Source: Armatimonadota bacterium
Lineage (GTDB): Bacteria; Armatimonadota; SYMT01
DNA: 64,000 nt
Reading direction: 5' to 3'
Assembly: GCA_041690135.1 (NCBI GenBank)
Contig: JAWLHY010000016.1
Coordinates: forward strand, 125,906-189,905
The notes under the pieces were generated by a model that worked only from the letters and a program-made list of their open reading frames with translations, ran no database searches and had not been told where the DNA came from. The translations under genes were made by a program, and so were the position numbers. Below are positions 1 through 14,167 of the stretch, one piece after another. Each line of letters opens with the position of its first letter. Within the stretch, counting starts at the first letter, position 1.

Positions 1-1638
1 GCGGCATCGATCGAGCGGGAACTCTCCAGCAACGTCCGCACCCTCCGGGCGCTGGCCGAGTCGGAGTACCTGGATCAGGACGATCTGAAGGCATTCCACG
101 CGCAAGCGATGCGAGTGCAGAGCACTCAGCCCGGGTGGCTGACGGTCCTCTTGCTGAATCCGGATGGACGCCAACTGGTCAATTCTGCGCGGCCCTGGGG
201 AACGTCCCTAACGGGCGCGCAAGAGCCGGATAGCCTGCGTGCAGTCGTGAAAAGTGGCCGGCCCGTGGTCGGGCGCCTGGCCCGAGGAAAACGAGGGAAC
301 TGGGCTTTTCCCGTCCGGGTGCCCATCAAACGGGCGGGCGAGATCCGCTATGTGCTCACCGCCGCTGTGACGTGGGAGTCGCTGGCGGACGTGGTCGCCC
401 ACCAGCTGCCGCCTCAGGAAGAATGGACGCGGGTCATCGTGGACCAGTCCGGTCGAATCGCGGCGCGGACTCGCAATCCCGAACAGTGGGTCGGACAACT
501 CGGCACCCCTTCCTTCATTCAACGGTCCGCCGCTTCCGCAGAGGGAGTTTACCGCGACCGAACAATGGAAGGGACCTCGGTCTATGTAGCCTTCAGCCGG
601 GTCCCGGGTAGCGGCTGGACCGCCGCGGTAACGGCTCCCGTGCTCGTTGTCGAGAAGTCGGTACGCAGTTCGCTGGCAGCGGTTCTGGTCCTGGGTCTGG
701 TGCTACTACTGGCCAGTGGAGCGGGAGCATTCTACCTCTCGCGACATGTGTCACAGGGGATCATCTCGGTAGCCGCGGCCGCGGAAGCCCTGGCACACGG
801 CGCACGTCCCGTTTCCAAGCCGGCGGGGATTACAGAGGTTGCCCGCCTGGGAGAAGCGCTGGAGCGCTCCGCGGCCCTGCTCCAGGCACGCGAGCGAGAA
901 CGGGATGAACACTTACATCAGGCCGAAGCGGCGCGCGCCGAAGCAGAAGCGGCCAGCCGCGCCAAGGACGAGTTCCTCGCGATGCTCGGCCATGAACTGC
1001 GCAATCCCCTCTCCCCTATCCTCACCGCCGTGGAGATCATGAAGCTGCGGCAAGCAGGCCAGCCTCGAGAGCTCGGCGTCATCGAGCGGCAGGCGCATCA
1101 CCTGACGCGCCTGGTGGACGATCTCCTGGATGTCTCCCGGATCACCCGCGGAAAGATCGAGCTGCGGAAGGAGTCGGTGGACCTGGCCGGCGTCGTCGCC
1201 CGCGCCCTGGAAATGGTTAACCCGCTCCTGGAACAGCGTGAGCATGAGGTTGCAGTCGTCTGTGGCTGCGACGCGCTGCGGGTGGTCGGCGACCCGGTGC
1301 GCTTGGCCCAGGTGATGGCCAACCTCCTCACCAATGCGGCTCGCTATACCGAGCCCGGCGGCCGCATTGAGGTGGTCTCCGAACGGAAAAGCAACCAGGC
1401 CGTGATCCGGGTCAAGGACAACGGCCAGGGCCTCGCCGCCGACCTGCTGCCACGCGTGTTCGATCTGTTCGTCCAGGGGCCGCGCGCCCTTGCTCGGCAG
1501 GAGGGCGGATTGGGGATTGGCCTGACCCTGGTGCGCAGCCTGGTCGAGATGCACGGCGGCACCGTCGAAGTATCGAGCGACGGTCTGGGGAAAGGGAGCA
1601 CCTTCACCGTGCGGCTTCCGCTGGCAGATACCGTTTAA
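1..1638 (+). CDS. Membrane sensor histidine kinase (Cache-like sensor, TM, HAMP-like, HisKA, HATPase); 5'-truncated by window edge
   Basis: Frame open from base 1; H-box EFLAMLGHELRNPL, N-box QVMANLLTNAARY, G boxes DNGQG and GGLGIGL; no receiver domain. Confidence 0.93.
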   Translation, partial: AASIERELSSNVRTLRALAESEYLDQDDLKAFHAQAMRVQSTQPGWLTVLLLNPDGRQLVNSARPWGTSLTGAQEPDSLRAVVKSGRPVVGRLARGKRGNWAFPVRVPIKRAGEIRYVLTAAVTWESLADVVAHQLPPQEEWTRVIVDQSGRIAARTRNPEQWVGQLGTPSFIQRSAASAEGVYRDRTMEGTSVYVAFSRVPGSGWTAAVTAPVLVVEKSVRSSLAAVLVLGLVLLLASGAGAFYLSRHVSQGIISVAAAAEALAHGARPVSKPAGITEVARLGEALERSAALLQARERERDEHLHQAEAARAEAEAASRAKDEFLAMLGHELRNPLSPILTAVEIMKLRQAGQPRELGVIERQAHHLTRLVDDLLDVSRITRGKIELRKESVDLAGVVARALEMVNPLLEQREHEVAVVCGCDALRVVGDPVRLAQVMANLLTNAARYTEPGGRIEVVSERKSNQAVIRVKDNGQGLAADLLPRVFDLFVQGPRALARQEGGLGIGLTLVRSLVEMHGGTVEVSSDGLGKGSTFTVRLPLADTV

Positions 1639-1771
1639 TCATCCGAGCTTTGTGGCATGCCACAGTTGCACTTGGCCGGCATCGCCTGACGCAAATCCCG
1701 TGTCCGGGTCAGTCACTTGCCTGGAGACCGGGATCACCGTATCGAGGCCGGTCCGCAAAGGAGAATGCCGG

Positions 1772-2644
1772 ATGTTTCGCCGTATCGAAGCCTTACAGTA
1801 CCATGCCAAGCCGGACAAGCCGGATCCTGTATTCGCTCGCCAGCTCCAGGAAGTCCTGGGAGGCCAATGGGGCGAGATGAGTGTGATGATGAGCTATCTC
1901 TTCCAGGGCTGGAACTGCCGCGGCCCGGCCAAGTACCGGGACATGATCCTGGACATCGCCACCGAGGAGATTGGGCACGTGGAGATGCTGGCGACCATGA
2001 TCGCCCGGCTCCTGGAGCGAGCGCCCCTGGAAGCGCAAGAGGATGCCGCCCGCAACCCGATTGTGGGTGCGATCATGGGCGGCACCGATCCCCAGGCGGT
2101 GCTTGCCGGAATGAACCCGCAGCACATTATCGTCACGGGCCTGGGCGCCAGCCCCACCGACAGCGTAGGCTACCCCTGGAATTCCCGTTACACCATCGCC
2201 AGCGGCAACCTCCTCGCCGATTTCCGGTTCAACGTGACGGCGGAGTCGCAGGGGCGCCTCCAGGTGACCCGCCTGTGGGAACTGACGAATGACAGCGGGG
2301 TCCGCGACATGCTGTCGTTCTTGATCGCCCGCGACACGATGCACCAGAACCAGTGGCTGGCCGCCATCGAAGAACTGGAAGCGGAGGGACTGGAAGCTAC
2401 CCCGGTGCCGGTGACCTTCCCGCAGGAGAAGGAGCTGCGCGAGGTGTCGTACCAGTACATGAACTTCTCCGAGAGTATCCAGAGCCAGGATGGCCGCTGG
2501 GCGAGCGGACCCGCGCCGGATGGCAAAGGAGAGTTCCAGTACGTGGCGGATCCCCAGCCCTTGGGAGAAGTCCCCGACCTGGGCATGGTGGACCCGCGCG
2601 TTCACGGCACCGCCAAGAAGCCGATCCCACCCCTGGCGGCATGA
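1772..2644 (+). CDS. Manganese catalase family protein
   Basis: LQEVLGGQWGE, DIATEEIGHVEML, NVTAESQGRL and ARDTMHQNQW motifs; AAGGAG RBS before ATG 1772. Confidence 0.93.
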   Translation: MFRRIEALQYHAKPDKPDPVFARQLQEVLGGQWGEMSVMMSYLFQGWNCRGPAKYRDMILDIATEEIGHVEMLATMIARLLERAPLEAQEDAARNPIVGAIMGGTDPQAVLAGMNPQHIIVTGLGASPTDSVGYPWNSRYTIASGNLLADFRFNVTAESQGRLQVTRLWELTNDSGVRDMLSFLIARDTMHQNQWLAAIEELEAEGLEATPVPVTFPQEKELREVSYQYMNFSESIQSQDGRWASGPAPDGKGEFQYVADPQPLGEVPDLGMVDPRVHGTAKKPIPPLAA

Positions 2645-2664
2645 GGTAGTCCACGGCGATGTTC

Positions 2665-2695
2665 GCGAGCCGAAGCTCCCGTGGCTTCGGCTCGC
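2665..2695 (+). terminator. Stem-loop/terminator after Mn catalase
   Basis: GCGAGCCGAAGC-7nt-GCTTCGGCTCGC perfect 12-bp inverted repeat; weak U tail. Confidence 0.6.
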
Positions 2696-2702
2696 TATTG
2701 GG

Positions 2703-2731
2703 TTTAGAGGTGGGACCGAGCCGGCTATAAC
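2703..2731 (+). promoter_or_regulatory. Possible sigma70-type promoter for the phosphoesterase gene
   Basis: TTTAGA-17nt-TATAAC upstream of GTG 2765. Confidence 0.4.
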
Positions 2732-2764
2732 TCACGGGCAAAGCACCGCCTGCTTGTACTACCC

Positions 2765-4747
2765 GTGAAGCTCGTCGATCTCGTTAACTTTTTCAAAAGC
2801 CCGCACGACCGCGATATCATCGCGCATCGCACCGCGCCGCCCGGTCCGCGCGGCTACACTCTGGAACTGCCGCAGCCGCCGGATCCCGAGCGGTTTGTCT
2901 TTCTCGCCCTGGGCGACAGTGGCGACTCCGCTGCCGTGGGCGCGCAACAGTCTCCACAGGACGCTGTGGCGGCCTGCCTGGCGGAAGACGCAGCCCTCCC
3001 CGAAAGCCAGGGGGATGCCCGGCTGGTGGTGCACACTGGCGACGTGGTGTACATGACCGGCGAGCGACGGATGTACGACCGCAACTTCCGGCGGCCCTAC
3101 GCGCCCTTTCTCACGGCCGGCAGCACGGTCGATCACCTCGTGTTCCGGCTGCCCTTCCTGCCGGTGCCCGGCAACCATGATTATTACGATTACTCGGGCA
3201 TCGTCAGCTGGTTGACCCGCACTCCCATCCTGGGGGCGGGAGTGGCGGCGGTGGCTCGCGAGTTGTTCGGTTTTCACCTTCCACAGGGCGGTTCGGACAT
3301 GGGGGCTGCCTATATGCACGCCTTCGTGGCCGGGAGTGCGGCCGAACGCGATGCCCCTTACGAGCTAGGGCATCGTACCCGCATCCCCAACCGCTACTAC
3401 CGGTTCCGCGTGGGAAATGCGGACTTCTTTGCCCTCGATTCGAATACCCTGGAAGCGCCTCCGCCCAATGGGCACCTGGACGCCGAGCGTGAGGATGCAG
3501 CGCGACACGTGCGGGCACTCGAACGGCGGGCTCGCGCGCTCAGCCGACAGATCGAACGCGATGAGCGGGCCGTTGAGAAGTGGCTGCAGAGCGAGCGCGA
3601 ACGGGCTGCCGAGGATGTGGAACGCCTGGCGGAGCTCCGGGTTTCCGGCCTGATGGTAGGCTCGGCGCTCGACAACCTGGCAACCGCTCTCCGGAACCTG
3701 GAGCCCGCTACCCCTGCTTGCGGACCGCCGGCGGACGAAGCAGCGCATCTCGCCCAACGCTGGCGAGATGCGACGGCGGAAGTGGTACCTGGCGGAAGCT
3801 TACGAGCGAACATTGATGCACTGGAGAACCTGGATGGAGCCGCGGATCGCTGCTGCGAGCTCCTGGATCGGCTGGAAGTTTGCTTTACGGAACTTCCGGC
3901 GGGGTCCGGGCGTGAGGCACTGGAGGCGGCGCGCGATGCGGTGTTGCGCGCGACAGCGCGCTGGCGGGACTACGAATGCGGGAGCCCGCCGGCAGACTTG
4001 TGCGAGCGGCTGCGGCGCCTCTCGGCCCGTGCCCTGGATGTCCACCGTCACCTGGCATTGGAGCGGCGGCGTGTCGACCGCCGGCCGGAGGATCACGATG
4101 CCGCGCAACTAGAATGGCTGCGAGAGGGGCTGGAACAGTCTCTTCGCGACAACCCGGATGGTTGGCGGATCGTTTACCTGCACCAACCGCTCTACACAAC
4201 GATCGGAAACCACAGCGAAAACCATGACGTGGTGGGGGTACGCGAGAACCTGCTGCCCTTACTGCGCGACCGCGTCCACCTGGTGCTTGCCGGTCACGCG
4301 CACGCCTTCGAGTGGTTCCGCTCGGACACGCTTCCCACTACGGGACTGGTGGTGACCGGTGGCGGTGGTCAACCCTGGCTCTGGCGCTCGATTCTCGACC
4401 CACGCCAGATCCGGCGCTTCCGCTCCCTCTACCAGTCGCTTCGGGACGGGGGCGCAATGGAGTGCGCCCTGGCCGGGTTCGGCCCGCCCGCGGCGGACGG
4501 CGAACGGGGAGGGCTTTACCACTACCTGCGGGTCGAGGTCACGCCGGACAGAATCCTGGTCACTCCGGTAGGTGTGCGGCGCATAGACAACGGGTATCGG
4601 CGGGAAACCCCAATGCCGGTCTACCACGTCCCGGAGCTACCTTCCGAACTCCCGGTGGGGAAACCGCTCTGGCAGCGCCGGTTCTTAAGTGGAATCGAGA
4701 TCCGCCGGGGTGAGCCGCCACAGCCCCTGTGGGCCAACGAACTCTGA
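2765..4747 (+). CDS. Calcineurin-like metallophosphoesterase (purple acid phosphatase-like motifs) with large helical insertion
   Basis: LGDSG, GDVVY, GNHDY, YLHQP and GHAH metal-binding motifs; about 215-aa helical insert. Confidence 0.85.
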   Translation: MKLVDLVNFFKSPHDRDIIAHRTAPPGPRGYTLELPQPPDPERFVFLALGDSGDSAAVGAQQSPQDAVAACLAEDAALPESQGDARLVVHTGDVVYMTGERRMYDRNFRRPYAPFLTAGSTVDHLVFRLPFLPVPGNHDYYDYSGIVSWLTRTPILGAGVAAVARELFGFHLPQGGSDMGAAYMHAFVAGSAAERDAPYELGHRTRIPNRYYRFRVGNADFFALDSNTLEAPPPNGHLDAEREDAARHVRALERRARALSRQIERDERAVEKWLQSERERAAEDVERLAELRVSGLMVGSALDNLATALRNLEPATPACGPPADEAAHLAQRWRDATAEVVPGGSLRANIDALENLDGAADRCCELLDRLEVCFTELPAGSGREALEAARDAVLRATARWRDYECGSPPADLCERLRRLSARALDVHRHLALERRRVDRRPEDHDAAQLEWLREGLEQSLRDNPDGWRIVYLHQPLYTTIGNHSENHDVVGVRENLLPLLRDRVHLVLAGHAHAFEWFRSDTLPTTGLVVTGGGGQPWLWRSILDPRQIRRFRSLYQSLRDGGAMECALAGFGPPAADGERGGLYHYLRVEVTPDRILVTPVGVRRIDNGYRRETPMPVYHVPELPSELPVGKPLWQRRFLSGIEIRRGEPPQPLWANEL

Positions 4748-4820
4748 CCCGGTGAAGCTGATTCAGAACTTGTGCGGAAGGTGAGAGCAAACCTGGCGTG
4801 GTCTCTTGCCTGCACCACCG

Positions 4821-6218
4821 TCACCCGAACAAGCGCACGAGCGGTGAACCCGTACTCAAAGGGATCGGGCGCCCGAGAGGATCGACCAACTCCGTCGCGG
4901 GGTGGATACCGAGGGCATGGTAGAGGGTGGCGGCCAGGTCTTCGGGTGTTACGGGGTCGGAAAGGGGGTAGGCGGCGTCCCGGTCGGAAGCACCGTAGAC
5001 CTGCCCCCCGCGGATACCCCCGCCGGCGAGCACCACGGTGTTGCAGGCGGCCCAGTGGTCCCGGCCCGCGTTCTTGTTGATCGTAGGGGTCCGGCCGAAC
5101 TCACCGAGGCAGATGACCAGGGTTTCCTCCAGCAGACCCCGCTCGTGGAGATCGGCGATAAGCGCGGAAAATGCACGGTCGAACGGCGGAAGGAGGCTGC
5201 CTTTCAGCTGCTTGAAGTTGTCCGCGTGGGTATCCCAGAAGGCATCGTCGCGCATCCAGTTGACCGTCACCAGCCCCACTCCGGACTCCACCAACCGGCG
5301 GGCCAACAGTAGCCCCTGGCCGAACGGGTGGGAGCCGTACTTTTCGCGCACCGGGGCGGGCTCGGCCTTCAGGTTCCAGGCTTCCCGCGCAGCCGTGGAA
5401 AGCGTGAGTTCCAGTGCCCGGCGGCGATGTTCGTCGAACCGGGACGTCGCGGCGACCGGCTCCAGCGCGCGCCACCGGCGGTCGACGTCTTCAAGCAGGG
5501 ACCGCCTCCGGCTCAGGCGACCGTCCGGCAGTGCGATCTCCGGGTGGAACGGCCGGAAATCCGGGCGACTGGGGTCCTGGCTCAGGAATAGCGGATCGTG
5601 TTCCGCACCGAGAAAGCCCGCGAAGAAGCCCGGGAAGATGTGGTTGTTCGCGGAGACTTGATTCGCGGGTGCGTTCAGACTGACGCCGGAAGGGATGGGG
5701 CCGGAGCCTGGGCGCAACTTCCTCACCACGGCGCCAAAGGTGGGGAAATCGGTGGCCTGGTTTTGCGGATTGGTGTTCGGTCGAGCGTGGCGATGGCCGG
5801 TGAGCATGTAGTGCATCGCCACGGTGTGCGTGTTGTCCGGGTGGGTCACGGAGCGCACGAACGCCAGGTGTTCCGCCTGGCGCGCCAGCAGGGGCAAATG
5901 TTCGCACACGGAGATCCCGGACACGGTGGTGGGAATCGGGCGGAACTCCCCACGCACCTCGGCCGTGCCCTCGGGCTTCATGTCCCAGAGATCCTGGTGC
6001 CCCGGCGCTCCAAACAGAAAGGCGACAATGCAGGACTTCGCCCGACCGAACGACCGTGGGGGCGCACTCCCAACAGCAACCGCTTCGGCAGCTGCGGCGC
6101 GACCGCAAAGCAGCTCGGGAAGGATCAGCCCCCCGAACCCCAGGCCACCGGCGCGAAGCCATTCACGCCGGCTGATCCCTTCGCACAATTTGAGCGGTCC
6201 GTCCCCAACTGAAAGCAT
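4821..6218 (-). CDS. DUF1501 family protein
   Basis: SRREWL Tat-like N-terminus; WDMKP, LLARRLVESGV, WDTH, GEFGRTP and GRDHW motifs. Confidence 0.9.
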   Translation of the reverse strand: MLSVGDGPLKLCEGISRREWLRAGGLGFGGLILPELLCGRAAAAEAVAVGSAPPRSFGRAKSCIVAFLFGAPGHQDLWDMKPEGTAEVRGEFRPIPTTVSGISVCEHLPLLARQAEHLAFVRSVTHPDNTHTVAMHYMLTGHRHARPNTNPQNQATDFPTFGAVVRKLRPGSGPIPSGVSLNAPANQVSANNHIFPGFFAGFLGAEHDPLFLSQDPSRPDFRPFHPEIALPDGRLSRRRSLLEDVDRRWRALEPVAATSRFDEHRRRALELTLSTAAREAWNLKAEPAPVREKYGSHPFGQGLLLARRLVESGVGLVTVNWMRDDAFWDTHADNFKQLKGSLLPPFDRAFSALIADLHERGLLEETLVICLGEFGRTPTINKNAGRDHWAACNTVVLAGGGIRGGQVYGASDRDAAYPLSDPVTPEDLAATLYHALGIHPATELVDPLGRPIPLSTGSPLVRLFG

Positions 6219-6330
6219 GGCGCCCCGTCCTTGCCCGAGTAGGACAGCGGACCGGAGCCGGGGTTTCGGGAAACATGGGGCCGCCGCACCTGAAGCAGCG
6301 AACGTGCGCTATCTGGGACGCCAATACAAC

Positions 6331-6366
6331 AACGGGGGGTCCGGAGAACTCTCAGGCCCCCCTGTT
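6331..6366 (-). terminator. Intrinsic terminator closing the gdh-cNMP operon
   Basis: Minus strand AACAGGGGGGCC...GGACCCCCCGTTGTTGT GC-rich stem just after the stop at 6389. Confidence 0.6.
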
Positions 6367-6388
6367 TTCGCGACTCGTCCGCCCGAGC

Positions 6389-7249
6389 TTAGCGAGGGTA
6401 AAGGGAGACGGTGATGATGTGCCAGACCACCATCTGTACGGCGACGGCGGTGAGTAGCAGGTGGTAAAGGGTCCAGCCGCGCATGAACCGGTGGTAAGAT
6501 CGAAGGACCTCCACCTGGTTCAGGTCGCGGACCAGTTGACGCGCCTCCATCGAGAGGGGCGTTAACTCAGCGGCCGCCGCGTCCACCTGCCCGTCCCAGA
6601 AGTTCCAGTCCGGCATGCGCCACAGGTTGGCGCTCCGCCGAGCGGCCATCGCACGCACCGCCCGGTCCACATCCTGCTTGCTGAACTTCGGCGCGCCGGG
6701 GCCTTCCGCTTCCGCCAGGGTGTAAAGGCGGGTGAGGATGCGGTCGCGACTGGCGTTGATCTCGGTCAGGACCGACGGGGTGTACTCGTGGCGAACCATC
6801 CACCAGCGGATGAGTGTCTGGTAGAGCCATCCGAAAACCCCGGTTCCTACCGTGCCCCAGTAGCCGATCTGGAGCGCGGTCAGGAAGGGGGAGCGAAATT
6901 GGAACCCGCTGTGGCAGCCCAGCAAAACCAGTGCGATCAGGCCCAGGACGAGGTGGGCGCGATACCAGAATTGGAGCGTGCCGCTGCGGCTCCGGTAGGA
7001 GATCCTACGCAGACCGTAAAGTGCGAGAAAGGCAAACAGCACCGTGCCGGCCAGGCCGTAATAGCGACCCCATTGCGTGGCGGCCGGAACTTCCGCGCCG
7101 GCCGTGGCCTGCAAGTAGAACCAGATCAACCCACCACTGAGCAGCCACGCCAGTACGGTGAGCACCCGGTAACCCGTACGCGTGGGCCTGGTGGCGACGT
7201 CGGGTCGAACCGCCGCACCGGGAATAGCTGATGAATCGGAAGCTCCCAT
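6389..7249 (-). CDS. Multi-pass membrane protein with two H-x13-H pairs (ferric reductase-like putative di-heme b domain)
   Basis: About 5 hydrophobic helices; WYRAHLVLGLIALVLLGCH and WTLYHLLLTAVAVQMVVWH; start ATG 7249 or GTG 7255. Confidence 0.75.
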   Translation of the reverse strand: MGASDSSAIPGAAVRPDVATRPTRTGYRVLTVLAWLLSGGLIWFYLQATAGAEVPAATQWGRYYGLAGTVLFAFLALYGLRRISYRSRSGTLQFWYRAHLVLGLIALVLLGCHSGFQFRSPFLTALQIGYWGTVGTGVFGWLYQTLIRWWMVRHEYTPSVLTEINASRDRILTRLYTLAEAEGPGAPKFSKQDVDRAVRAMAARRSANLWRMPDWNFWDGQVDAAAAELTPLSMEARQLVRDLNQVEVLRSYHRFMRGWTLYHLLLTAVAVQMVVWHIITVSLYPR

Positions 7250-7417
7250 AACCACCTGGTCTACCGGCTCTGCCGCCGGTTGTCGTTTCGCTGTATGAGC
7301 CGGACCCGCTACGGAGTCCGTGCGTTCCCTTCGCCGGGTACCCGAAGTGGCCTCCCGCGAAACCCGATCCTTCGGGAGGGAGATGGGACCGCAACTACGG
7401 CTTCGGGCGTGCGCAAG

Positions 7418-9739
7418 CTAACCTTCCGGAGCGCCATTCGCCGGTTTCACCGCCTGGGTAGATACTTCGGCTCCAACCGGATTTGGGGTCGCCGGTCGGG
7501 CGGGTACTGCCGGCTTTTCGGGCTTCTCCGGCTTGCCGAACTCAACTTCGATCGTGGTGTGCCCCAGGTAAAGGCCCCCCTGGTACACCGCAAGGGAAAG
7601 GACCTGGGGGCCCGGCGTGCGACACGTCAGCGCGTAACGCGTCTGGCCCTCCAGGATCTCTGCCGCGTGAACGGGCAACTGCAACTGGCGCATCGGCCCG
7701 CCGCCGCCGATGCGAATAGTATCGGAAGCGATCATGAAGAAGTTCAGCTTCAGTACGGAAACGCCATGTTCGGGCCTCCGGCAGTAGATCTTCAGGCCTT
7801 CGCCCGATGGTCCGACGCGCACGTCCAATTCCGCGGGCTTCCCGGCGACCGGGGGGTGAGCCCAGTTCGTCTCCACGATCAGCTCCCACTGCTCATCCGA
7901 GGGACGGTTAGCATGGGTCTCCACCGGCGCGGGTTTCGCCAGCGCTTCCGCAAACTGGCGGTCTCCGTCAATCCGGATCACCGCGCCGGTGGGGCAACTC
8001 TGCACGCATGCCTGCTGAGGACGTCCGTGGCACAGGTCGCACTTCACCGGATAGTTCTTGCCGGATTTGCTCTCCGAGCCGGTTGAGCCTTCGCCACCGG
8101 CCTTCCGGAACATGCGGAGGACCTGCTGCACCAGCGAGAGGGGCTCCTGCTGGCGCACCTGGTCGGCCGGTACGATCTGGATGCTTCCATACGGGCAGCC
8201 CTGGCTGGGGTCCGCGCACTTACCGCACCGGATACACCGATCGTACTCGATGAACACCGCTCCCGAACCCGCCTCGCGCTGGAGAGCGTGCGTGGGACAA
8301 ACCTCCGCACACAGCGCAAACTCGCAGTGCTGGCAGGAGTGCGACAGCCGCACCTGGGGCAGCACGTCCTCGTCCTGGCGCATGTTGTCCCAGAGGAACC
8401 GGTTCAGGCCGTCCGGATGTACCTCCTGGCAGGCTGTCACGCAGTTGTTGCACCGGATGCAATCGTCCATGCGGACACCCAGCACCCAGTTGCCGGCGAT
8501 GTGCTGGGTTTCCATCATCCAACCCAGGCGGACGGCCCGCTGCGCATCGTCCTCCAGTTGTTCATTCATCACACGTCGCTGGCGGGTCATCGACACCAGC
8601 TTCTTGCGGACGTCGGCGTGACGCGCGACGATGTCCTGAAAGTCGGCCGCCGGAATGCGAATGGCATCCACCCGCTGGAGGGCGGCCACGGTCTGCCCGC
8701 GCCGGCCCGTCTCTCCGGGTTCGGGGAGGAGGGCCATCTCCCCCACCGTCTCTCCGGTCCGCACCCAGGCGATGGGACGGGGGCCGCGAGCGGTTTCCTC
8801 GACCACCAGCATCGTGCCGTTCAGCACGACATAGAGTGCGTCCGCCTCCTGGCCCTGGAAAAAGATCGGCTCGTACGGCTCAAAGCTCTCGAGCGTGCCG
8901 ATGTCCCGGATGGACTCGAGCTCCGCGACCTCCAACCCGCCGAAGAACGAGGTCTTGCGGAGTTGCCCGATCATCGCGTTCTGGCGGTAACGCTCCTCCA
9001 CCAGCGTCTTGAAGATCTTACTCTTCTTCCGGAGCTCGGCCACCGCGGAGCGGTCGCACTCCAGCACCAGGCAGTCGCCGCGCGCGGTGATGGTGGCGCT
9101 GCGGGTCTGGTAGGCGAGTACGGCGATCTCACCGAAGAAGTCGCCCCGCCTGGCCACAGGGTGGGGACCGCCCGCAATGTGAATCTCCGCCTCGCCTTCC
9201 AGGACGAAGAACATCGTGCCGCCGTACTCCCCTTCGCGCACGATCGCCTCACCGTCCCGGTAGAGACGACAGGAGGATTCGCGAAGTACCTTTTCGAGGC
9301 TCTCCACGGGCAGGTCGGCGATCGGTCCGAGGCCAGCGACGAGGGGGCTATAGAAGTCGACGCTGAAGCGGTTGGGCACTCCGCACAGGAGGGCGAGCAG
9401 TTGCGGTTTGCACTCCAGGACGGCACTGCGCTGCCGCGCAACCAGCTTCTCGGAGAAAGGCTGACCACGAAGTCCGCTCCACTGACCGTAAATCCGGGTG
9501 GGCGGGACATCAGCGCCGGGCGGGGCCTGGTCGGCAGGGTGTACGAGGCCCGTCAAAACGATATAGGCCCCGCGGAGCGTCTCGGGGTCCGAGAGGACTT
9601 CCCCCGGCACCAGTTGCCAGCACCGTGCCTGCTCCAGTGCCTGGCGGTACCGGTGCGCATCGGGAAGCTGGAGGAGTTCGGCAAAGAACTCGCTTTCTTC
9701 AAGGGCGGCTTGCAAGGGAGTGCGACCCGAAACACTCAT
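7418..9739 (-). CDS. Tandem cyclic nucleotide-binding domains fused to a DmsB/NrfC-type 4x[4Fe-4S] domain and a C-terminal beta-sandwich
   Basis: FFGEIAVL..RSAT and VGEMALL cNMP cassettes plus one degenerate N-terminal copy; CIRCNNCVTAC, CQHCEFALCAEVCP, CIRCGKC..CP, CDLC..CVQSCP. Confidence 0.9.
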   Translation of the reverse strand: MSVSGRTPLQAALEESEFFAELLQLPDAHRYRQALEQARCWQLVPGEVLSDPETLRGAYIVLTGLVHPADQAPPGADVPPTRIYGQWSGLRGQPFSEKLVARQRSAVLECKPQLLALLCGVPNRFSVDFYSPLVAGLGPIADLPVESLEKVLRESSCRLYRDGEAIVREGEYGGTMFFVLEGEAEIHIAGGPHPVARRGDFFGEIAVLAYQTRSATITARGDCLVLECDRSAVAELRKKSKIFKTLVEERYRQNAMIGQLRKTSFFGGLEVAELESIRDIGTLESFEPYEPIFFQGQEADALYVVLNGTMLVVEETARGPRPIAWVRTGETVGEMALLPEPGETGRRGQTVAALQRVDAIRIPAADFQDIVARHADVRKKLVSMTRQRRVMNEQLEDDAQRAVRLGWMMETQHIAGNWVLGVRMDDCIRCNNCVTACQEVHPDGLNRFLWDNMRQDEDVLPQVRLSHSCQHCEFALCAEVCPTHALQREAGSGAVFIEYDRCIRCGKCADPSQGCPYGSIQIVPADQVRQQEPLSLVQQVLRMFRKAGGEGSTGSESKSGKNYPVKCDLCHGRPQQACVQSCPTGAVIRIDGDRQFAEALAKPAPVETHANRPSDEQWELIVETNWAHPPVAGKPAELDVRVGPSGEGLKIYCRRPEHGVSVLKLNFFMIASDTIRIGGGGPMRQLQLPVHAAEILEGQTRYALTCRTPGPQVLSLAVYQGGLYLGHTTIEVEFGKPEKPEKPAVPARPATPNPVGAEVSTQAVKPANGAPEG

Positions 9740-9752
9740 GAAACACCACTAT

Positions 9753-10307
9753 CTAGAAGGACCACTCTGTGAATAGTCGGCGCCGGAGCTCATCCAGATC
9801 CGCCGCCTGGGTAGATGTTCGGCGGACCTCCGGGAGTTCCGTGACCTGCTCCACCGCGAGTGCGGTCAACTCCCGCCCGGCCAACTCCAACCGGCGGGCG
9901 AGTACCTGGGCCGCCGCCAGAACAAACTTGTGGGTCCAGGTATCCACGCGCCGCAGGCCCGTTTGGAAGGCCGGCTGCGATATCCGCCAGAGGACGGCCG
10001 GCTCCTCGACCGTGGCGGTCGCGGTCCGCGGGGTGTCCAGCAGCAGGCCGATTTCCCCAAAGATCGCCCCGGCCGCCAGCTGCGCCACGTCCCTTTCACC
10101 TGCCCCGGGTCCGGCCATGCGAATCCGCACCTTTCCCGAGACCAGCAGATAAACCGAATCCCCCGGATCACCCTGGCGGAATAGGACCTCACCCGCTGGG
10201 AGGCGGATTTCCTCCAGCAGACCGGCCACCACTCCCGCTTCCCAATCCTGCAATTCCTGGAAGCAGCGGAACTGGCGAACCGCCTCAATACTGATTTCGG
10301 TTCCCAT
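9753..10307 (-). CDS. Stand-alone cyclic nucleotide-binding domain protein (no HTH)
   Basis: LFRQGDPGDSVYLLVSGKV and IFGEIGLLLDTPRTAT; helical C-terminus. Confidence 0.9.
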   Translation of the reverse strand: MGTEISIEAVRQFRCFQELQDWEAGVVAGLLEEIRLPAGEVLFRQGDPGDSVYLLVSGKVRIRMAGPGAGERDVAQLAAGAIFGEIGLLLDTPRTATATVEEPAVLWRISQPAFQTGLRRVDTWTHKFVLAAAQVLARRLELAGRELTALAVEQVTELPEVRRTSTQAADLDELRRRLFTEWSF

Positions 10308-10314
10308 GGCCCTC

Positions 10315-11550
10315 CTAAACTCCTCGCAGCACGGTCGCCTTAGCCACGCGCCCCAGGCCGACCACGAACGCCGCCTGTCGCCACGAGAGATTCCGCTGGC
10401 GAGCCACGTCGCGGACCGTGCCGTAGCTCGTGGTCATGATCTGCCGGAGGCGTTGGTTCACTTCTTCTTCCGTCCAGCGGAAGCATTGGATGTTCTGCGT
10501 CCACTCGAAGTAGCTCACGGTGACGCCCCCGGCGTTCGCGAGGATATCCGGAATCACCGGAATCCCTCTCCCCACCAGAATCTCGTCCGCTTCGGGCTCG
10601 GTAGGTGCATTGGCGGCCTCGATGACGGCTCCCGCGCGCATTTCGCGGGCGATGTCTTCGGTGATCACGTCTCCCAGGGCCGCGGGAATTAGCAGGTCCA
10701 CCTCCAGCGTCAGAAGCTCCTCCTGGGTGATTCGCGAAACTCCTTCCGCCTGGTATTGGGAGAGCGGCCGGCGTTGCCGGGCATAACCAGCGAGGGTGGG
10801 AATATCGAGACCGTCCCGGTGGTAGATCGCCCCGCTCACGTCGCTGACGGCAACAATTTTCGCTCCGGCCGCATGGGCGATCTGCGCGGCAAAGGAGCCG
10901 ACGTTCCCAAACCCCTGGATGGCCAATGTCGCGCCGGCCAGGGAGCGGCCGAGGTCGCGCAGGTACTCCTCCGCAATACAGATCACACCACGGCCGGTGG
11001 CGGCTTCGCGCCCCTCACTCCCATGGAGCTCCAGGGGCTTCCCCGTCACCACTGCCGGCGAAAAGCCGTTCAGCTTGGAGTACTCGTCCATGATCCAGGC
11101 CATCACCTGCGCGTTCGTGTTCACATCCGGCGCGGGGATGTCGCGCTGGGGGCCGATTTCCTGACTGATCCGCTGGACGAACTTCCGCGTCACCCGCTCC
11201 AGCTCGCCGTGCGACAACTCGTCCGGGTTGCAGGAGATCCCGCCCTTCGCTCCACCGTAGGGGATATTCACGACCGCCGTCTTCCAGGTCATCAGGGAGG
11301 CGAGTGACCGCACGTCATCTTCGTCCACGGTCGGATGATAGCGAAGCCCGCCCTTCATCGGTCCCCGGGCGGAGTTGTGTTGGATGCGGTATCCCGAAAA
11401 CACCGCCAGTTCCCCGTTGTCCAGCTCCACGGGAACACTCACGATGTGCTCGGCTTCGGGCGTCAACAGCAGCCGCTCCACCCTCGAGCCGAGGTGCATG
11501 ATCCGTGCGGCCTGACGAATGTAGTAGTTGGTTGCCTCGGATGCCTTCAT
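10315..11550 (-). CDS. gdhA: Glutamate dehydrogenase (Glu/Leu/Phe/Val dehydrogenase family)
   Basis: RGPMKGGLRYHP, MTWK, GGAKGG, DIPAPD, GREAATGRG, IQGFGNVG, NAGGVTVSYFEW; GGAGG RBS before ATG 11550. Confidence 0.95.
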   Translation of the reverse strand: MKASEATNYYIRQAARIMHLGSRVERLLLTPEAEHIVSVPVELDNGELAVFSGYRIQHNSARGPMKGGLRYHPTVDEDDVRSLASLMTWKTAVVNIPYGGAKGGISCNPDELSHGELERVTRKFVQRISQEIGPQRDIPAPDVNTNAQVMAWIMDEYSKLNGFSPAVVTGKPLELHGSEGREAATGRGVICIAEEYLRDLGRSLAGATLAIQGFGNVGSFAAQIAHAAGAKIVAVSDVSGAIYHRDGLDIPTLAGYARQRRPLSQYQAEGVSRITQEELLTLEVDLLIPAALGDVITEDIAREMRAGAVIEAANAPTEPEADEILVGRGIPVIPDILANAGGVTVSYFEWTQNIQCFRWTEEEVNQRLRQIMTTSYGTVRDVARQRNLSWRQAAFVVGLGRVAKATVLRGV

Positions 11551-11678
11551 CTCCCCCTCCTGTGGCCGGTCTCTTGTTCTACCCGGAAGGTTGGTTGCAC
11601 CTCCGCTTCCGCTCATTTCAATCTTTAGTTTGCATTCCTCTCGTCATCGCGCCGTTTCGCGTGCTTAAATAAGGTGAC

Positions 11679-12371
11679 ATGATCGCTTATCTTCGCGGGA
11701 TCATCCGGCACCTGGACGACACGTCGGTCGTGTTGGACGCAGGCGGAGTCGGATACGAAATTCTCCTCCCCACCATCGAGGCTAAGGCCTTGCGGTCGCG
11801 CGTGTTGCGCGAAAGCGCGGCACCCGCAGCCGCGGAATCGGACGGCAGCAGTGCGGGGAGCGCGCCCGCGTCCGCCGTCGTCGAAGCCGAGACGGCGATG
11901 TGGATCTATTACCACGTCGCCGAACGCCAGCCGCGGCCGTTGCTGATCGGCTTCCATCAGCGGGATGACCGGGAGTTCTTCCAACTCCTGCTTTCGGTCT
12001 CCGATATCGGACCGGCCGTAGCCGCCCGCTCGATGACCATCCCTGTTTGCGACTACGCGGATGCCATCGAACGGCGAGACGTGCGCACGCTGGGGACGCT
12101 GCCGGGAATAGGCAAGCGGAAGGCGGAGCAGATCGTGGCCACGCTGAAGGGGAAGGCGCTGCGGTTCGCCCTGCTTCCGGCGCCGGAGATCTCCGAACCG
12201 GAGACGCCGGTTGCGGACTTTGCGGCCGATGCCGCGGCGGTCCTCGAGAATATGGGGCACCGGCCGGCGGAAGCGCACCGAATGATTCAAGCCGCGCAGG
12301 AACGACGTCCCGATATCTCGGACGTCCAGGGCTTACTTGAGGAAGTCTGGCGAGAGAGGCAAACGCAATGA
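11679..12371 (+). CDS. ruvA: Holliday junction branch migration protein RuvA
   Basis: MIAYLRG..GGVGYE N-terminus; HhH motif LPGIGKRKAEQI; overlaps ruvB start. Confidence 0.92.
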   Translation: MIAYLRGIIRHLDDTSVVLDAGGVGYEILLPTIEAKALRSRVLRESAAPAAAESDGSSAGSAPASAVVEAETAMWIYYHVAERQPRPLLIGFHQRDDREFFQLLLSVSDIGPAVAARSMTIPVCDYADAIERRDVRTLGTLPGIGKRKAEQIVATLKGKALRFALLPAPEISEPETPVADFAADAAAVLENMGHRPAEAHRMIQAAQERRPDISDVQGLLEEVWRERQTQ

Positions 12372-13405
12372 GAGAGCGATTGGTGGGCGGTTCCGAGCTT
12401 CCGGGCGAAGAGCGCGTGATGGCTTCCCTGCGCCCCCGGGCGCTGGAAGAGTACATCGGCCAACAACAAGTGATCCGGCCTTTGCGCATCGCCATCGAGG
12501 CCGCGCGTCGCCGGTCGGAACCGCTGGACCATGTTCTCCTGCACGGACCCCCGGGTCTGGGCAAGACGACTCTGGCCCACATCATCCGCCAGGAGATGGG
12601 CGTGGAGATCAAGTCCGCCATCGGGCCGGCCCTGAAACGCCCCACGGACCTGATGGGTCTGCTGACGACGCTCGGCGCGGGGGACGTCTTCTTCATCGAC
12701 GAGATCCACCGGCTGGACGCTGCCTTCGAAGAATACCTCTATCCGGCGATGGAGGATTTCTCCATCGACTTTACGCTCGACAAAGGCGCCAATGCGCGGG
12801 TGATCAATTATCCGCTCCGCCGGTTCACCCTGGTCGGAGCGACGACAATGACGGGACTGCTTTCCGGTCCGCTGCGAGGTCGCTTCGGGCTTACCTACCA
12901 TCTCGACTACTACCATCCGGACGATCTGAAGACCATCATCCTGCGATCGGCGTCCATCCTGGAAGTGCCGATCGAAGAGAGCGGCGCCGAGGAGATCGCC
13001 CGGCGCTCCCGCGGAACTCCCCGCATCGCGAACCGGTTGCTCCGGCGGGTTCGGGACTACGCGGAGGTGGAGGGCAATGGGGTTGTAAATGCGGCCGCGG
13101 CGGATGCGGCCCTGAAGCTGGAAGGCATCGACAACCTGGGGCTGGACCGGCTCGATCGCGAATTGCTGCGGGTGATCATCGAGACCTACCAGGGCGGTCC
13201 GGTCGGGATCGAGGCCCTGGCGGCCACGCTCAATGAAGAACAGAGCACGCTCGTCGAGGTCGTGGAGCCGTATCTGCTCAAGATCGGCTTCCTGGCTCGC
13301 ACGCCCAGCGGACGACGCGCGACGCCGCTCGCCTACTCCCACATGGGCATTCCCATGACCGGCGGCGGAGGCGCCGGTGGACGCCAGGGCAACCTGAGCC
13401 TTTAG
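12368..13405 (+). CDS. ruvB: Holliday junction branch migration helicase RuvB
   Basis: LRP..L.EYIGQ, GPPGLGKTT, FIDEIHRL, YPAMEDF, RGTPRIANRLL, GGPVG. Confidence 0.98.
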   Translation: MRERLVGGSELPGEERVMASLRPRALEEYIGQQQVIRPLRIAIEAARRRSEPLDHVLLHGPPGLGKTTLAHIIRQEMGVEIKSAIGPALKRPTDLMGLLTTLGAGDVFFIDEIHRLDAAFEEYLYPAMEDFSIDFTLDKGANARVINYPLRRFTLVGATTMTGLLSGPLRGRFGLTYHLDYYHPDDLKTIILRSASILEVPIEESGAEEIARRSRGTPRIANRLLRRVRDYAEVEGNGVVNAAAADAALKLEGIDNLGLDRLDRELLRVIIETYQGGPVGIEALAATLNEEQSTLVEVVEPYLLKIGFLARTPSGRRATPLAYSHMGIPMTGGGGAGGRQGNLSL

Positions 13406-13413
13406 ACCGGCTC

Positions 13414-13728
13414 TTACACGTATCCGGGCGGTAGGCTGCCCAGCCCGGCATTCACCGGCAGGAGGTAGATGGCGGTTTGGAGGCCATCGGGCGAGCATTC
13501 CGTCTCGAGCCGGAGGTTCCCCTCCCGGACGAGACGGTTCACCGACGCTTTGATCTCCTCCACGGTGAAGGTGGCGCCGAACTGCTGCATGAAGACGCTG
13601 AGCACCGGCGGACTGTAGGCCCGCCCCGGACCATCCGTGGCCCAGCGTCGCGCGGCGGCGTCCTGTCTGGTGATTGCCGCCAGCAGGAGCTCATCCAGGG
13701 CTGTTTCGAGAGGCGTGCGCACGTCCAC
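13414..13728 (-). CDS. Small hypothetical protein, possibly winged-helix-like
   Basis: GTG at 13728 after purine-rich RBS, 10 bp downstream of the receiver gene; FTVEEIKASVNRLVREGNLRLE. Confidence 0.5.
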   Translation of the reverse strand: MDVRTPLETALDELLLAAITRQDAAARRWATDGPGRAYSPPVLSVFMQQFGATFTVEEIKASVNRLVREGNLRLETECSPDGLQTAIYLLPVNAGLGSLPPGYV

Positions 13729-13738
13729 GATTCCCCCC

Positions 13739-14167
13739 CTACCCACGTGCGGCCAGTTCGGCCAGGGTCTGCTCCAGGGCGCCAAGCGCGACCGGCTTGA
13801 CGAAGTAACGCTCGAAGCCGGCTCGGTCGGCCCGTTGAAGAGCATCGGCACCGCTGAAGCCACTCATGGCGAGAGCTGGGATTGTTTCCCAACCGGAACG
13901 CGCTCGTAGTTCTTCCAGGAGGTCGCAACCATTGCCGTCCGGAAGTCCGATATCGGACAGGATCACATCCGGCGGCTCCGTGACCGCTCGCGCCCCGGCG
14001 GCATCGGCCACCGCCAACACCATGTGGCCCATCACCTCCAGGATCTCGGTGATCGTCCAACGTGCGTCGGCAAAGTCCTCGATCAGGAGAATGCGTAGCG
14101 ACGCCGGTCGGACGTCCGTCGCCCGTTTGATATCCGGCTGCCCCGACCCCAACGACACCATGGTCAT
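13739..14167 (-). CDS. Single-domain response regulator (receiver)
   Basis: ILLIED, PDVILSDIGLPDGNG (phospho-Asp), ALAMSG, YFVKPV. Confidence 0.9.
   Translation of the reverse strand: MTMVSLGSGQPDIKRATDVRPASLRILLIEDFADARWTITEILEVMGHMVLAVADAAGARAVTEPPDVILSDIGLPDGNGCDLLEELRARSGWETIPALAMSGFSGADALQRADRAGFERYFVKPVALGALEQTLAELAARG

Follow-up and report, generated by a model that had tools for sequence, protein, structure and literature searches.

We describe here two adjacent genes that probably encode a transmembrane electron conduit, which may be controlled by cyclic nucleotide monophosphates (cNMPs). They lie in a stretch of 64,000 nucleotides (nt) from an Armatimonadota bacterium (assembly GCA_041690135.1, contig JAWLHY010000016.1, positions 125,906 to 189,905 of the forward strand), which we call the window and whose coordinates we use unless a locus is named. 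One of the genes codes for a 773-aa cytoplasmic protein in which cNMP-type domains are followed by an iron-sulphur (Fe-S) electron-transfer domain, and the other for a 286-aa membrane protein with two pairs of histidines. Upstream of them on the same strand stand gdh, coding for a glutamate dehydrogenase (GDH), and a gene for a stand-alone cNMP-binding protein of 184 aa (the cNMP-only gene), and on balance we believe these two to be a second module beside the conduit. An earlier, sequence-only reading of this DNA had presented the four products as one candidate redox system gated by cyclic nucleotides and co-transcribed with gdh; in what follows the pair at its core is kept and the limits of the system are redrawn.

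Results

The Fe-S and membrane proteins are supported as a functional unit by gene adjacency, by natural fusions and by a model of their complex, and the coupling that the sequence-only reading had proposed between them is upheld. A cNMP/Fe-S homologue stands in the same gene string as the membrane gene in all seven loci with readable upstream DNA, a count that leaves out L026, whose DNA begins only at the membrane gene and so says nothing on this point. The membrane gene follows directly in the window, in L009, L011, L027 and L028 and in the distant L010, and two genes lie between the partners in L008, from genome G086. The junction measures 168 nt in the window (162 nt if the membrane gene starts at GTG 7255), 2 nt in L027 and 91 nt in L011, and in L028 the end of the Fe-S gene roughly coincides with the start of the transmembrane (TM) match. 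Searching for related loci with the closer membrane alignment gave two genome loci and four metagenome loci, and with the single Fe-S protein as query one locus. The membrane family occurs in 5 of the 401 genomes sampled from the phylum, 4 of these 5 in the window's own family, and a membrane-profile search of 1.84 billion representatives returned 1483 relatives at E <= 0.001. Twenty-three long or atypical matches of this profile were scanned, and 11 of them are single polypeptides made of cNMP domains, Fer4 domains and a C-terminal membrane domain. The rest comprise one protein with Fer4 and membrane domains, ten without any Pfam family, and P0250, in which seven CxxCH motifs lie between TM segments and are followed by the membrane domain.

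When residues 405-773 of the Fe-S protein were modelled together with the membrane protein and two haems, the complex obtained a score of 0.63 (runs 0.60-0.66), against 0.00 for the best of three controls, and the verdict 'supports binding'. At the 0.63 mark the benchmark counts 116 of 157 solved complexes versus 2 of 215 mismatched pairs, numbers that hold only roughly here because we used our own alignments and included haem. The runs share at least 52% of their contacts, with a partner pLDDT (predicted local distance difference test score) of at least 77. The predicted interface joins residues 422-453 and 573-585 of the Fe-S protein, which belong to Cys groups I and IV, to residues 79-96, 144-163 and 253-268 of the membrane protein, which are in the complex model the cytoplasmic loops adjoining H99 and H263. 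Such a geometry would be the one expected for transfer of electrons from cluster to haem.

Within the 773-aa protein, the sequence-only reading had counted 16 Cys in four groups and ascribed their layout to the four-cluster electron-transfer type, of which the first was confirmed and the second supported. The groups (C427/430/433/437, C469/472/477/481, C502/505/508/515 and C567/570/578/582) run as CxxCxxCxxxC followed by three groups of CxxCx(n)Cx(3)CP type, and 16 of 16 Cys are invariant in 25 relatives. Compared with the PDB, the profile of this region finds HycB3 (7qv7_A, E 9e-17, profile positions 22-204, across all four Cys groups), ArrB (6cz7_B, 3e-16), HycB (7z0s_B, 1.5e-11) and PsrB (2vpw_B, 1.3e-8), then Fe-S subunits of aldehyde:ferredoxin oxidoreductase (AOR) type, namely AorA (8c0z_C, 2.9e-8) and 6x6u_B, and also NarH (1q16_B). 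These matches support the assignment of the Cys region to the four-cluster wires of HycB/ArrB/PsrB/DmsB type; for this fold we rely on sequence, because the model of the Fe-S part has a pLDDT below 50 (6-row alignment). The NCBIfam equivalogs DsrO, HydN, NrfC, ArrB and DmsB all score below their cut-offs, the best being DsrO with 60.8 bits against 200. The window encodes no molybdo-, tungsto- or hydrogenase catalytic partner for such a subunit, a search of the genome to which the window belongs gave no further copy of the Fe-S protein, and the protein's N-terminal sequence bears no signal or Tat motif. Near its C-terminus the protein carries an immunoglobulin (Ig)-like domain, modelled with a pLDDT of 67-93 per 10-residue block, whose fold matches are generic beta-sandwiches only (Z 8-11.3, including the FixG-related 2r39 with Z 8.0). 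This domain is present in 26 close full-length relatives and missing from the homologue in G077.

The three cNMP domains that had been noticed, the first of them degenerate, were recovered as well. Pfam detects cNMP_binding in two stretches (1e-33, 115.6 bits versus a cut-off of 27.5), along with eleven Fer4 families, and hhalign aligns the N-terminal region with the cNMP domains over 97 columns (probability 93.5%, E 2.2e-7). We take the motif G-E...R-[ST]-A to be the phosphate-binding cassette of PF00027 domains. It is lost in the degenerate domain, where FGE/R-T-A is replaced by YGQW and variable residues. Domain 2 keeps G203, E204, A206 and R213 invariant in 25 relatives; domain 3 has an insertion in its cassette (GEMALLPEPGETGRRGQT) and retains G, E, R and T around it, G333, R347 and T350 being invariant and E334 conserved in at least 90% of 25 relatives. 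The same genome encodes six nucleotidyl-cyclase domains above the Pfam cut-off.

The membrane protein, in its 286-aa form, is identical (100%) to a database protein. Its model (pLDDT 80.3, pTM 0.67) places TM helices at residues 25-48, 59-84, 92-114, 121-154 and 234-283, with a cytoplasmic helical insert of ~105 residues between TM4 and TM5, and the charge distribution fits an N-in, C-out topology. The two H-x13-H pairs pointed out in the sequence-only reading are H99/H113 on TM3 and H263/H277 on TM5, two helices with the same orientation. All four His are invariant in 20 close relatives and, together with G137, they form the sole invariant columns among 54 relatives whose mean column identity is 24%; chance falls far short of explaining such invariance. 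The kinship to ferric-reductase-like cytochromes b that had been suggested from these pairs gains some support from the 54 relatives, which were compared with PF14358 (DUF4405), PF01794 (Ferric_reduct) and PF01292 (Ni_hydr_CYTB) and give weak Pfam matches to DUF4405 in 27 cases (best 6.8e-6), to Ferric_reduct in 8 (3.4e-6) and to Ni_hydr_CYTB in 8 (0.002). Also, the nearest Atlas language-model clusters are automatically named 'Ferric reductase like transmembrane component' (score 0.95). A DUF4405 protein with four central His has been purified and binds haem b, according to a preprint (bioRxiv 10.1101/2024.03.13.584918). From the matches of the relatives to DUF4405 and Ferric_reduct, the names of the clusters and the haem b binding of the DUF4405 protein, we infer that the membrane protein is a divergent two-haem cytochrome b.

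The path of electrons into and out of such a pair can be approached through its relatives. More distant matches of the Fe-S region share the Fe-S half only, and most of them carry a Pyr_redox_2 domain resembling thioredoxin reductase (TrxR). These flavoprotein/cNMP/Fe-S proteins fall on 427 genomic stretches, of which the best 80 were kept as loci and examined; their titles name Acidobacteriota, Proteobacteria and Nitrospirales, and carriers of this form include cultured strains of Tahibacter, Alcanivorax, Pseudomarimonas and Fontimonas. An open reading frame (ORF) of the membrane family lies directly downstream of the flavoprotein gene in 64 of the 80 loci (62 of 73 once loci with less than 900 nt downstream are set aside). 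Fifty-nine of 79 flavoprotein-type loci hold an ORF with at least three CxxCH motifs, which in 47 of the 59 is an ORF with 9 or 10 CxxCH just past the membrane gene, and a four-CxxCH ORF is often found upstream. Read from its genes, the chain of the wider family would run from an NAD(P)H flavoprotein through cNMP domains, four clusters and two haems to multihaem cytochromes.

Closer to the window, the gene ahead of the Fe-S gene in G005 and G086 encodes five haem motifs (four CxxCH and one CxxxCH), and four multihaem genes surround the Fe-S/membrane pair in G077. The two genes inserted in L008 encode a thiamine pyrophosphate (TPP) enzyme with a C-terminal cNMP-binding domain (5091-7163) and then an AOR (7138-9282). 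Lying inside the module, they indicate a concrete donor; a cNMP-regulated 2-oxoacid decarboxylase that feeds the AOR would be a testable pathway. In the window's own genome, the matches to the L008 TPP enzyme are 30-32% identical and carry no cNMP domain, and contig C17 encodes an orthologue, of 313 aa and with 39% identity, of the small cytochrome c. The sequence-only reading had found no entry point for electrons; this is true of the window, but relatives have either a fused TrxR-like FAD/NAD(P)H domain or, in a single sister genome, an AOR with a TPP enzyme. It had also listed reactive oxygen species (ROS) among the possible outputs. As multihaem cytochromes c are what recurs among the extracytoplasmic neighbours, export or import of electrons is favoured over ROS production, and the output probably consists of multihaem cytochromes of the periplasm, in most cases one with ten haems.

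Other extracytoplasmic features recur around these loci. The three ten-haem cytochromes scanned past the membrane gene (L030:9417-11666, L046:6824-8656 and L063:9289-10974) have FHA (phospho-threonine-binding) domains, N-terminal in L046 and L063 and as two C-terminal domains in L030. Proteins of 1230-1390 aa with nine or ten CxxCH motifs are a second recurrent type, and Pfam finds LVIVD repeats in both of those scanned, L056:754-4632 and the 1389-aa protein with nine CxxCH at L017:10074-14243, which sits beside the small cytochrome c orthologue on contig C17 of the window's genome. A large CxxCH protein is encoded upstream of the flavoprotein gene in L056, L059, L060, L071 and L108, that is in 5 of the 11 loci without a membrane gene. 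Proteins of 560-700 aa with an HbpS-like domain recur too (L010:4941-6728, with a lipoprotein-like N-terminus, L030:11638-13554 and L063:11313-13391). The BLAST cluster that holds the HbpS-like example reaches 55 of the 80 loci with 91 genes, and the true count is lower because the size of the cluster and the lengths of its members suggest that ten-haem cytochromes are included. A copy in the window's genome (G000:C20:85868-87352, 50% identity) is unlinked to the module.

The second module consists of gdh and the cNMP-only gene. The GDH is an accessory paralogue with Pfam matches to ELFV_dehydrog (4.1e-77, 259.6 bits) and its N domain (2.2e-55, 186.3 bits), both of which exceed their cut-offs, and with NCBIfam GdhB and GdhA scores below theirs. 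The genome has two further GDH copies, 51% and 34% identical to that of the window, and orthologues at 77-79% identity are confined to genomes that also carry the Fe-S/membrane module. The 184-aa protein, announced earlier as a stand-alone cNMP protein without a helix-turn-helix (HTH), proved to be so: cNMP_binding (78.8 bits versus a cut-off of 27.5) is its only Pfam family, and the Pfam scan finds no HTH family or other DNA-binding domain on it. Its cassette reads FGEIGLLLDTPRTATA, the phosphate-binding cassette FGE...PRTA is kept in four orthologues, and its C-terminal part is helical, with a conserved EWSF tail. The stand-alone cNMP proteins (window:9753-10307, L008:1303-1851, L110:6509-7060 and L111:5682-6230) have in common a C-terminal helix ending L-R-x-R-L-x-[ST/A]-E-W-S-F, in which no known motif was recognised.

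The cNMP-only gene comes directly after gdh in all four carrier genomes (window, G086 C91, G005 C17 and G035 C49), but this pair adjoins the Fe-S/membrane pair in only two of them, the window and G086, and for this reason the operon of the window is better understood as two neighbouring modules. In G005 the two pairs are on different contigs, and in G035 genes of GH97 and GT4 follow the gdh/cNMP-only pair. Thus the sequence-only reading, which had placed gdh in the system, is sustained by the recurrence in G086 and weakened by the adjacency in two carriers of four, and gdh is probably not core; of the conserved neighbourhood to which that reading had looked, the membrane partner is kept and the gdh adjacency holds in two carriers of four. 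Nor is GDH itself read as the electron entry point, because its product is NAD(P)H, and the locus offers no protein that would pass electrons from NAD(P)H on to the Fe-S clusters. Four genomes without the membrane family (three of the same family and one of the same order, 80-98% complete) gave no orthologue of the cNMP-only protein at E <= 1e-15 and a best gdh match of 52% identity. Both modules are present in three genera and neither in four, a co-occurrence that hints at a link between them.

The features of the locus are given in Table 1. The four co-oriented ORFs, in the order gdh, cNMP-only gene, Fe-S gene and membrane gene, span 6389-11616 on the minus strand, and the short gaps attributed to them earlier measure 7 nt (gdh/cNMP-only), 13 nt (cNMP-only/Fe-S) and 168 nt (Fe-S/membrane). 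The two two-gene modules are probably transcribed together. Support for the shared terminator that had been proposed is weak. A hairpin trailed by a U-rich stretch (GUUGUUGUAUU) does stand past the last stop, with a folding energy of -34.1 kcal/mol, but its z is -1.73, 7 of 200 shuffles are equally stable, and it is not among the sites of the terminator pattern scan, which returned 5 in total versus 5.5 expected by chance. The promoter scan gave 0 sites versus 0.9 expected.

Table 1. Positions, in the window, of the genes, protein domains and non-coding elements of the locus
Feature	Position	Strand	Remarks
Membrane protein, 286 aa, 5 TM helices, N-in/C-out	6389..7249	-	ATG 7249, AGGTGG ahead; ORF reaches 7255
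773-aa cytoplasmic protein: degenerate cNMP-like domain, two cNMP domains, predicted four-[4Fe-4S] wire, Ig-like beta-sandwich	7418..9739	-	
Degenerate N-terminal cNMP-like domain, ~residues 31-126	9362..9649	-	Profile-profile match
cNMP domain 2, residues 158-239	9023..9268	-	Best Pfam stretch; canonical cassette FGEIAVLAYQTRSAT
cNMP domain 3, ~residues 266-388	8576..8944	-	Second Pfam stretch; NCBIfam stretch 266-388
Predicted four-cluster [4Fe-4S] electron-transfer domain, residues 423-592, 16 Cys	7964..8473	-	
C-terminal Ig/MG-like beta-sandwich, residues ~615-744, then Pro/Ala-rich tail	7508..7897	-	
Stand-alone cNMP-binding protein, 184 aa	9753..10307	-	Pfam cNMP_binding 3e-22, sole family
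gdh, accessory glutamate dehydrogenase paralogue	10315..11550	-	411 aa from ATG 11550; ORF open to 11616
Spacer, Fe-S gene to membrane gene	7250..7417	-	168 nt; AGGTGG five bases ahead of ATG 7249
Terminator-like G+C-rich hairpin with U-rich tail, past the membrane gene	6323..6362	-	Folding energy and shuffles

Around the four genes, ruvA and ruvB (11679-13405) are divergent and lie upstream of gdh, leaving a gap of 62 nt (11617-11678) to 128 nt (11551-11678) depending on the start of gdh. As gdh and ruvA are divergent, the promoters of both must fit in these 62-128 nt, where the promoter scan shows no sigma-70-like site. On the plus strand, downstream of the module, are genes for a dCache histidine kinase (109-1638), a Mn catalase (1652-2644) and a 660-aa metallophosphoesterase (2765-4747) whose Pfam match is confined to residues 436-514. 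The DUF1501 gene at 4821-6218 was considered as a fifth member and rejected because of the separating hairpin, the inconsistency of its family as a neighbour in the related loci examined and the abundance of that family in such genomes. Genes of DUF1501 or DUF1549/DUF1553 are found near the module or the gdh/cNMP-only pair in the window (4821-6218), L110 (3839-5167), L011 (3705-6779) and L030 (1956-3647); these families are very abundant in such genomes, and their proximity may be due to chance.

Discussion

In the mechanism that we favour, the Fe-S and membrane genes (module A) would encode a transmembrane electron conduit. The cytoplasmic protein would provide a wire of four [4Fe-4S] clusters, and its terminal cluster, with ligands from Cys group I and C582, would dock on the cytoplasmic face of the 5-TM protein. 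There, two b-type haems would be stacked across the membrane, an inner one held by H99/H263 and an outer one by H113/H277, and the conduit would carry electrons between a donor in the cytoplasm and multihaem cytochromes c in the periplasm. The two intact cNMP domains, on binding cAMP or cGMP, may set the coupling of the wire to its donor or to the haem protein. In the window's genome the donor would be encoded away from the locus, and the cytochrome c of the sister loci on contig C17. The accessory GDH and the 184-aa protein (module B) would be a separate pair, in which the latter may act as a dedicated cNMP-dependent regulator or partner of the former. Since the two modules co-occur and share a cNMP input, they may be co-regulated. 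It is tempting, and for now a tentative idea in which we have little confidence, to go further and suppose that a second messenger directly gates a respiratory-type wire and that the same signal controls the accessory GDH through the stand-alone cNMP protein. If this were true, amino-acid oxidation and extracytoplasmic electron disposal would be switched on together. We found no description of post-translational cNMP control of an electron-transfer chain in the literature searched, and no functional study in the literature on cNMP binding together with 4Fe-4S, thioredoxin reductase, ferric reductase, cytochrome b or electron transfer across membranes.

The sequence-only reading had held that no characterised system has this composition, which stands, but a similar pair has already been described. 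A putative porin-cytochrome cluster, ptdABCDEFG, was named from marine metagenome-assembled genomes in a preprint that assigns it no function (bioRxiv 10.1101/2023.11.21.568154). There, PtdE combines cNMP binding with 4Fe-4S clusters, the membrane protein PtdF resembles ferric reductase, PtdC is an FAD/NAD(P) oxidoreductase, PtdA, PtdD and PtdG are cytochromes with five, four and ten haems, and the cluster is reported in Alpha- and Gammaproteobacteria, Nitrospirales and Planctomycetes (bioRxiv 10.1101/2023.11.21.568154). The titles of our best 80 flavoprotein-type loci cover Alpha- and Gammaproteobacteria and Nitrospirales, and none names Planctomycetes. Our literature search found the ptd name in no other publication. 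Compared by description only, the window resembles ptd in having a cNMP/Fe-S gene (7418-9739) followed by a ferric-reductase-like membrane gene (6389-7249), and relatives of the pair are flanked by tetra- and ten-haem cytochromes in the order given for ptd. On the same footing, it differs in that the locus has no cytochrome c, porin or FAD protein, and in its degenerate third cNMP domain, its Ig-like end and its place behind gdh and the cNMP-only gene. Because cytochromes and porin are missing, the window may be seen as a stripped variant of the ptd kind.

Each half of the pair has better known counterparts. With the DUF4405 and ferric-reductase-domain cytochromes b (NOX, STEAP, MsrQ and FezC) the membrane protein shares two His pairs on two parallel TM helices as its most conserved residues and a presumed role in transmembrane electron transfer. 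Half of its relatives give weak Pfam matches, but the protein of the window gives no match to any of these families. Its TM helices number 5, against 6 in the DUF4405 model of the preprint (bioRxiv 10.1101/2024.03.13.584918), and it carries a cytoplasmic insert of 105 residues. Its partner is an Fe-S wire and not a flavinylated or FNR-type flavoprotein, and, unlike in NOX, no FAD/NADPH dehydrogenase domain is fused to the haem domain in the 286 aa. The Fe-S part has the same four Cys groups as the four-cluster subunits HycB (of formate hydrogenlyase and HDCR), ArrB, PsrB, DmsB, NarH and AorA (of tungsten aldehyde oxidoreductase), but it shares its polypeptide with three cNMP-type domains and one Ig-like domain. 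Its predicted docking can be likened to that of NarH on the membrane cytochrome NarI. The same logic is found in Tmc and Hmc of sulfate reducers, where a cytoplasmic Fe-S protein and a cytochrome b of the membrane are combined with a multihaem cytochrome c of the periplasm; these complexes differ from the module in their cytoplasmic subunit of HdrD/CCG type, their NarI-like cytochrome b and the absence of cNMP domains.

Several results weigh against the conduit as we have drawn it. The membrane protein of the window belongs to no Pfam (none at E <= 1) or NCBIfam family, its profile reaches no solved chain in the PDB (best E 0.18, all unrelated), and Foldseek on its model returns nothing at E <= 0.001. 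The structural matches given by VIA are generic helical bundles; a designed two-haem bundle reaches Z 8.2, STEAP4 7.1 and cytochrome b561 6.7, and none of these values exceeds the stated noise of helical models. The pass of the complex model may partly reflect memory of solved complexes between four-cluster proteins and cytochromes b. The window has no flavoprotein or catalytic subunit, none of the annotated genes of 109-14167 has a Pfam family of multihaem cytochromes or porins (CxxCH motifs were not counted), and three close-family loci (window, L027 and L028) show no adjacent cytochrome c. With the L008 AOR as query, no AOR was found in the window's genome, and 11 of the 73 flavoprotein-type loci with enough downstream DNA have no adjacent membrane-family gene. 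The co-occurrence of the two modules was counted among related genomes, a small and non-independent sample. Also, cNMP-type domains can bind other ligands.

Other explanations fit parts of these data. The pair could be a quinone-linked module of the NarH/NarI or FdnH/FdnI kind, in which the haems join the Fe-S wire to the menaquinone pool; it would then act as a quinol:Fe-S (or Fe-S:quinone) oxidoreductase under cNMP control. Its architecture, in which a dihaem b anchor bears a four-cluster subunit, is that of known quinone-coupled enzymes, the Fe-S part does match PsrB (2vpw_B) and NarH (1q16_B), the pair has no adjoining cytochrome c gene in the window, L027 and L028, and Ni_hydr_CYTB is weakly matched by 8 of the 54 relatives. 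However, multihaem genes flank the membrane gene in G005, G086, G077 and most flavoprotein-type loci, one relative even fuses a multihaem domain to the membrane domain, and no quinone-site motif was identified, which leads us to regard this explanation as unlikely, though one to be taken seriously; it is moreover not exclusive of the transfer to periplasmic cytochromes. Less credit still is due to the idea that all four genes form one system, in which oxidation of glutamate by GDH feeds the Fe-S wire under cNMP gating. The gaps of only 7 and 13 nt speak for it, as do the recurrence in G086 of the string of gdh, cNMP-only and Fe-S genes and the co-occurrence of the gdh paralogue, the cNMP-only gene and the module in four carriers, none of which was found in the four non-carriers. 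Also, the TPP enzyme and AOR of G086 might conceivably turn 2-oxoglutarate into succinate and give the electrons to the wire. But GDH reduces NAD(P)+ and no flavoprotein of the locus would hand electrons from NAD(P)H to the clusters; the gdh/cNMP-only pair is on another contig in G005 and precedes glycoside hydrolase and glycosyltransferase genes in G035; no gdh lies beside the module in G077, L027 or L028; and none is among the commonest or sampled annotated neighbours of the 80 flavoprotein-type loci, where no gdh-specific search was made.

Two explanations do without a conduit to periplasmic cytochromes, and we find both very improbable. The clusters and haems could serve as a redox or ligand sensor that reports redox state without net flux, with the cNMP domains adding a second messenger. 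Three sensor-type domains in a 773-aa protein with a stand-alone cNMP protein next to it would suit such a role, and the FHA domains on the neighbouring ten-haem cytochromes of relatives suggest heavy regulation. Yet Pfam finds no output domain (HTH, kinase, cyclase or phosphodiesterase) on any of the four proteins, a four-cluster wire with two stacked haems is suited to transfer over a distance, and relatives have NAD(P)H flavoprotein and ten-haem partners. Scarcely to be expected, finally, is an oxidase of NOX kind that would turn O2 into superoxide, or reduce Fe(III), directly at the outer haem. The weak Ferric_reduct matches of 8 of the 54 relatives and the ferric-reductase-like names of the Atlas neighbours point that way, and a Mn-catalase gene is found 4 kb off (1652-2644); against this, the catalase is on the opposite strand and past two unrelated genes, the membrane protein has no FNR-type FAD/NADPH domain, and dedicated multihaem partners are conserved in relatives.

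The conduit, as we read it, places the window in a wider setting. Its core pair belongs to an uncharacterised family, large and widespread, to which the window adds a flavin-less form with an Ig-like end. The sister locus with its AOR and TPP enzyme, and the conserved pair of gdh and cNMP-only gene that co-occurs with the module, are further additions. The window may thus be a variant of a barely described family, whose interest lies in a possible control of electron transfer by a second messenger. If this gating is real, it would give a handle on how bacteria throttle electron transfer to the outside of the cytoplasm.

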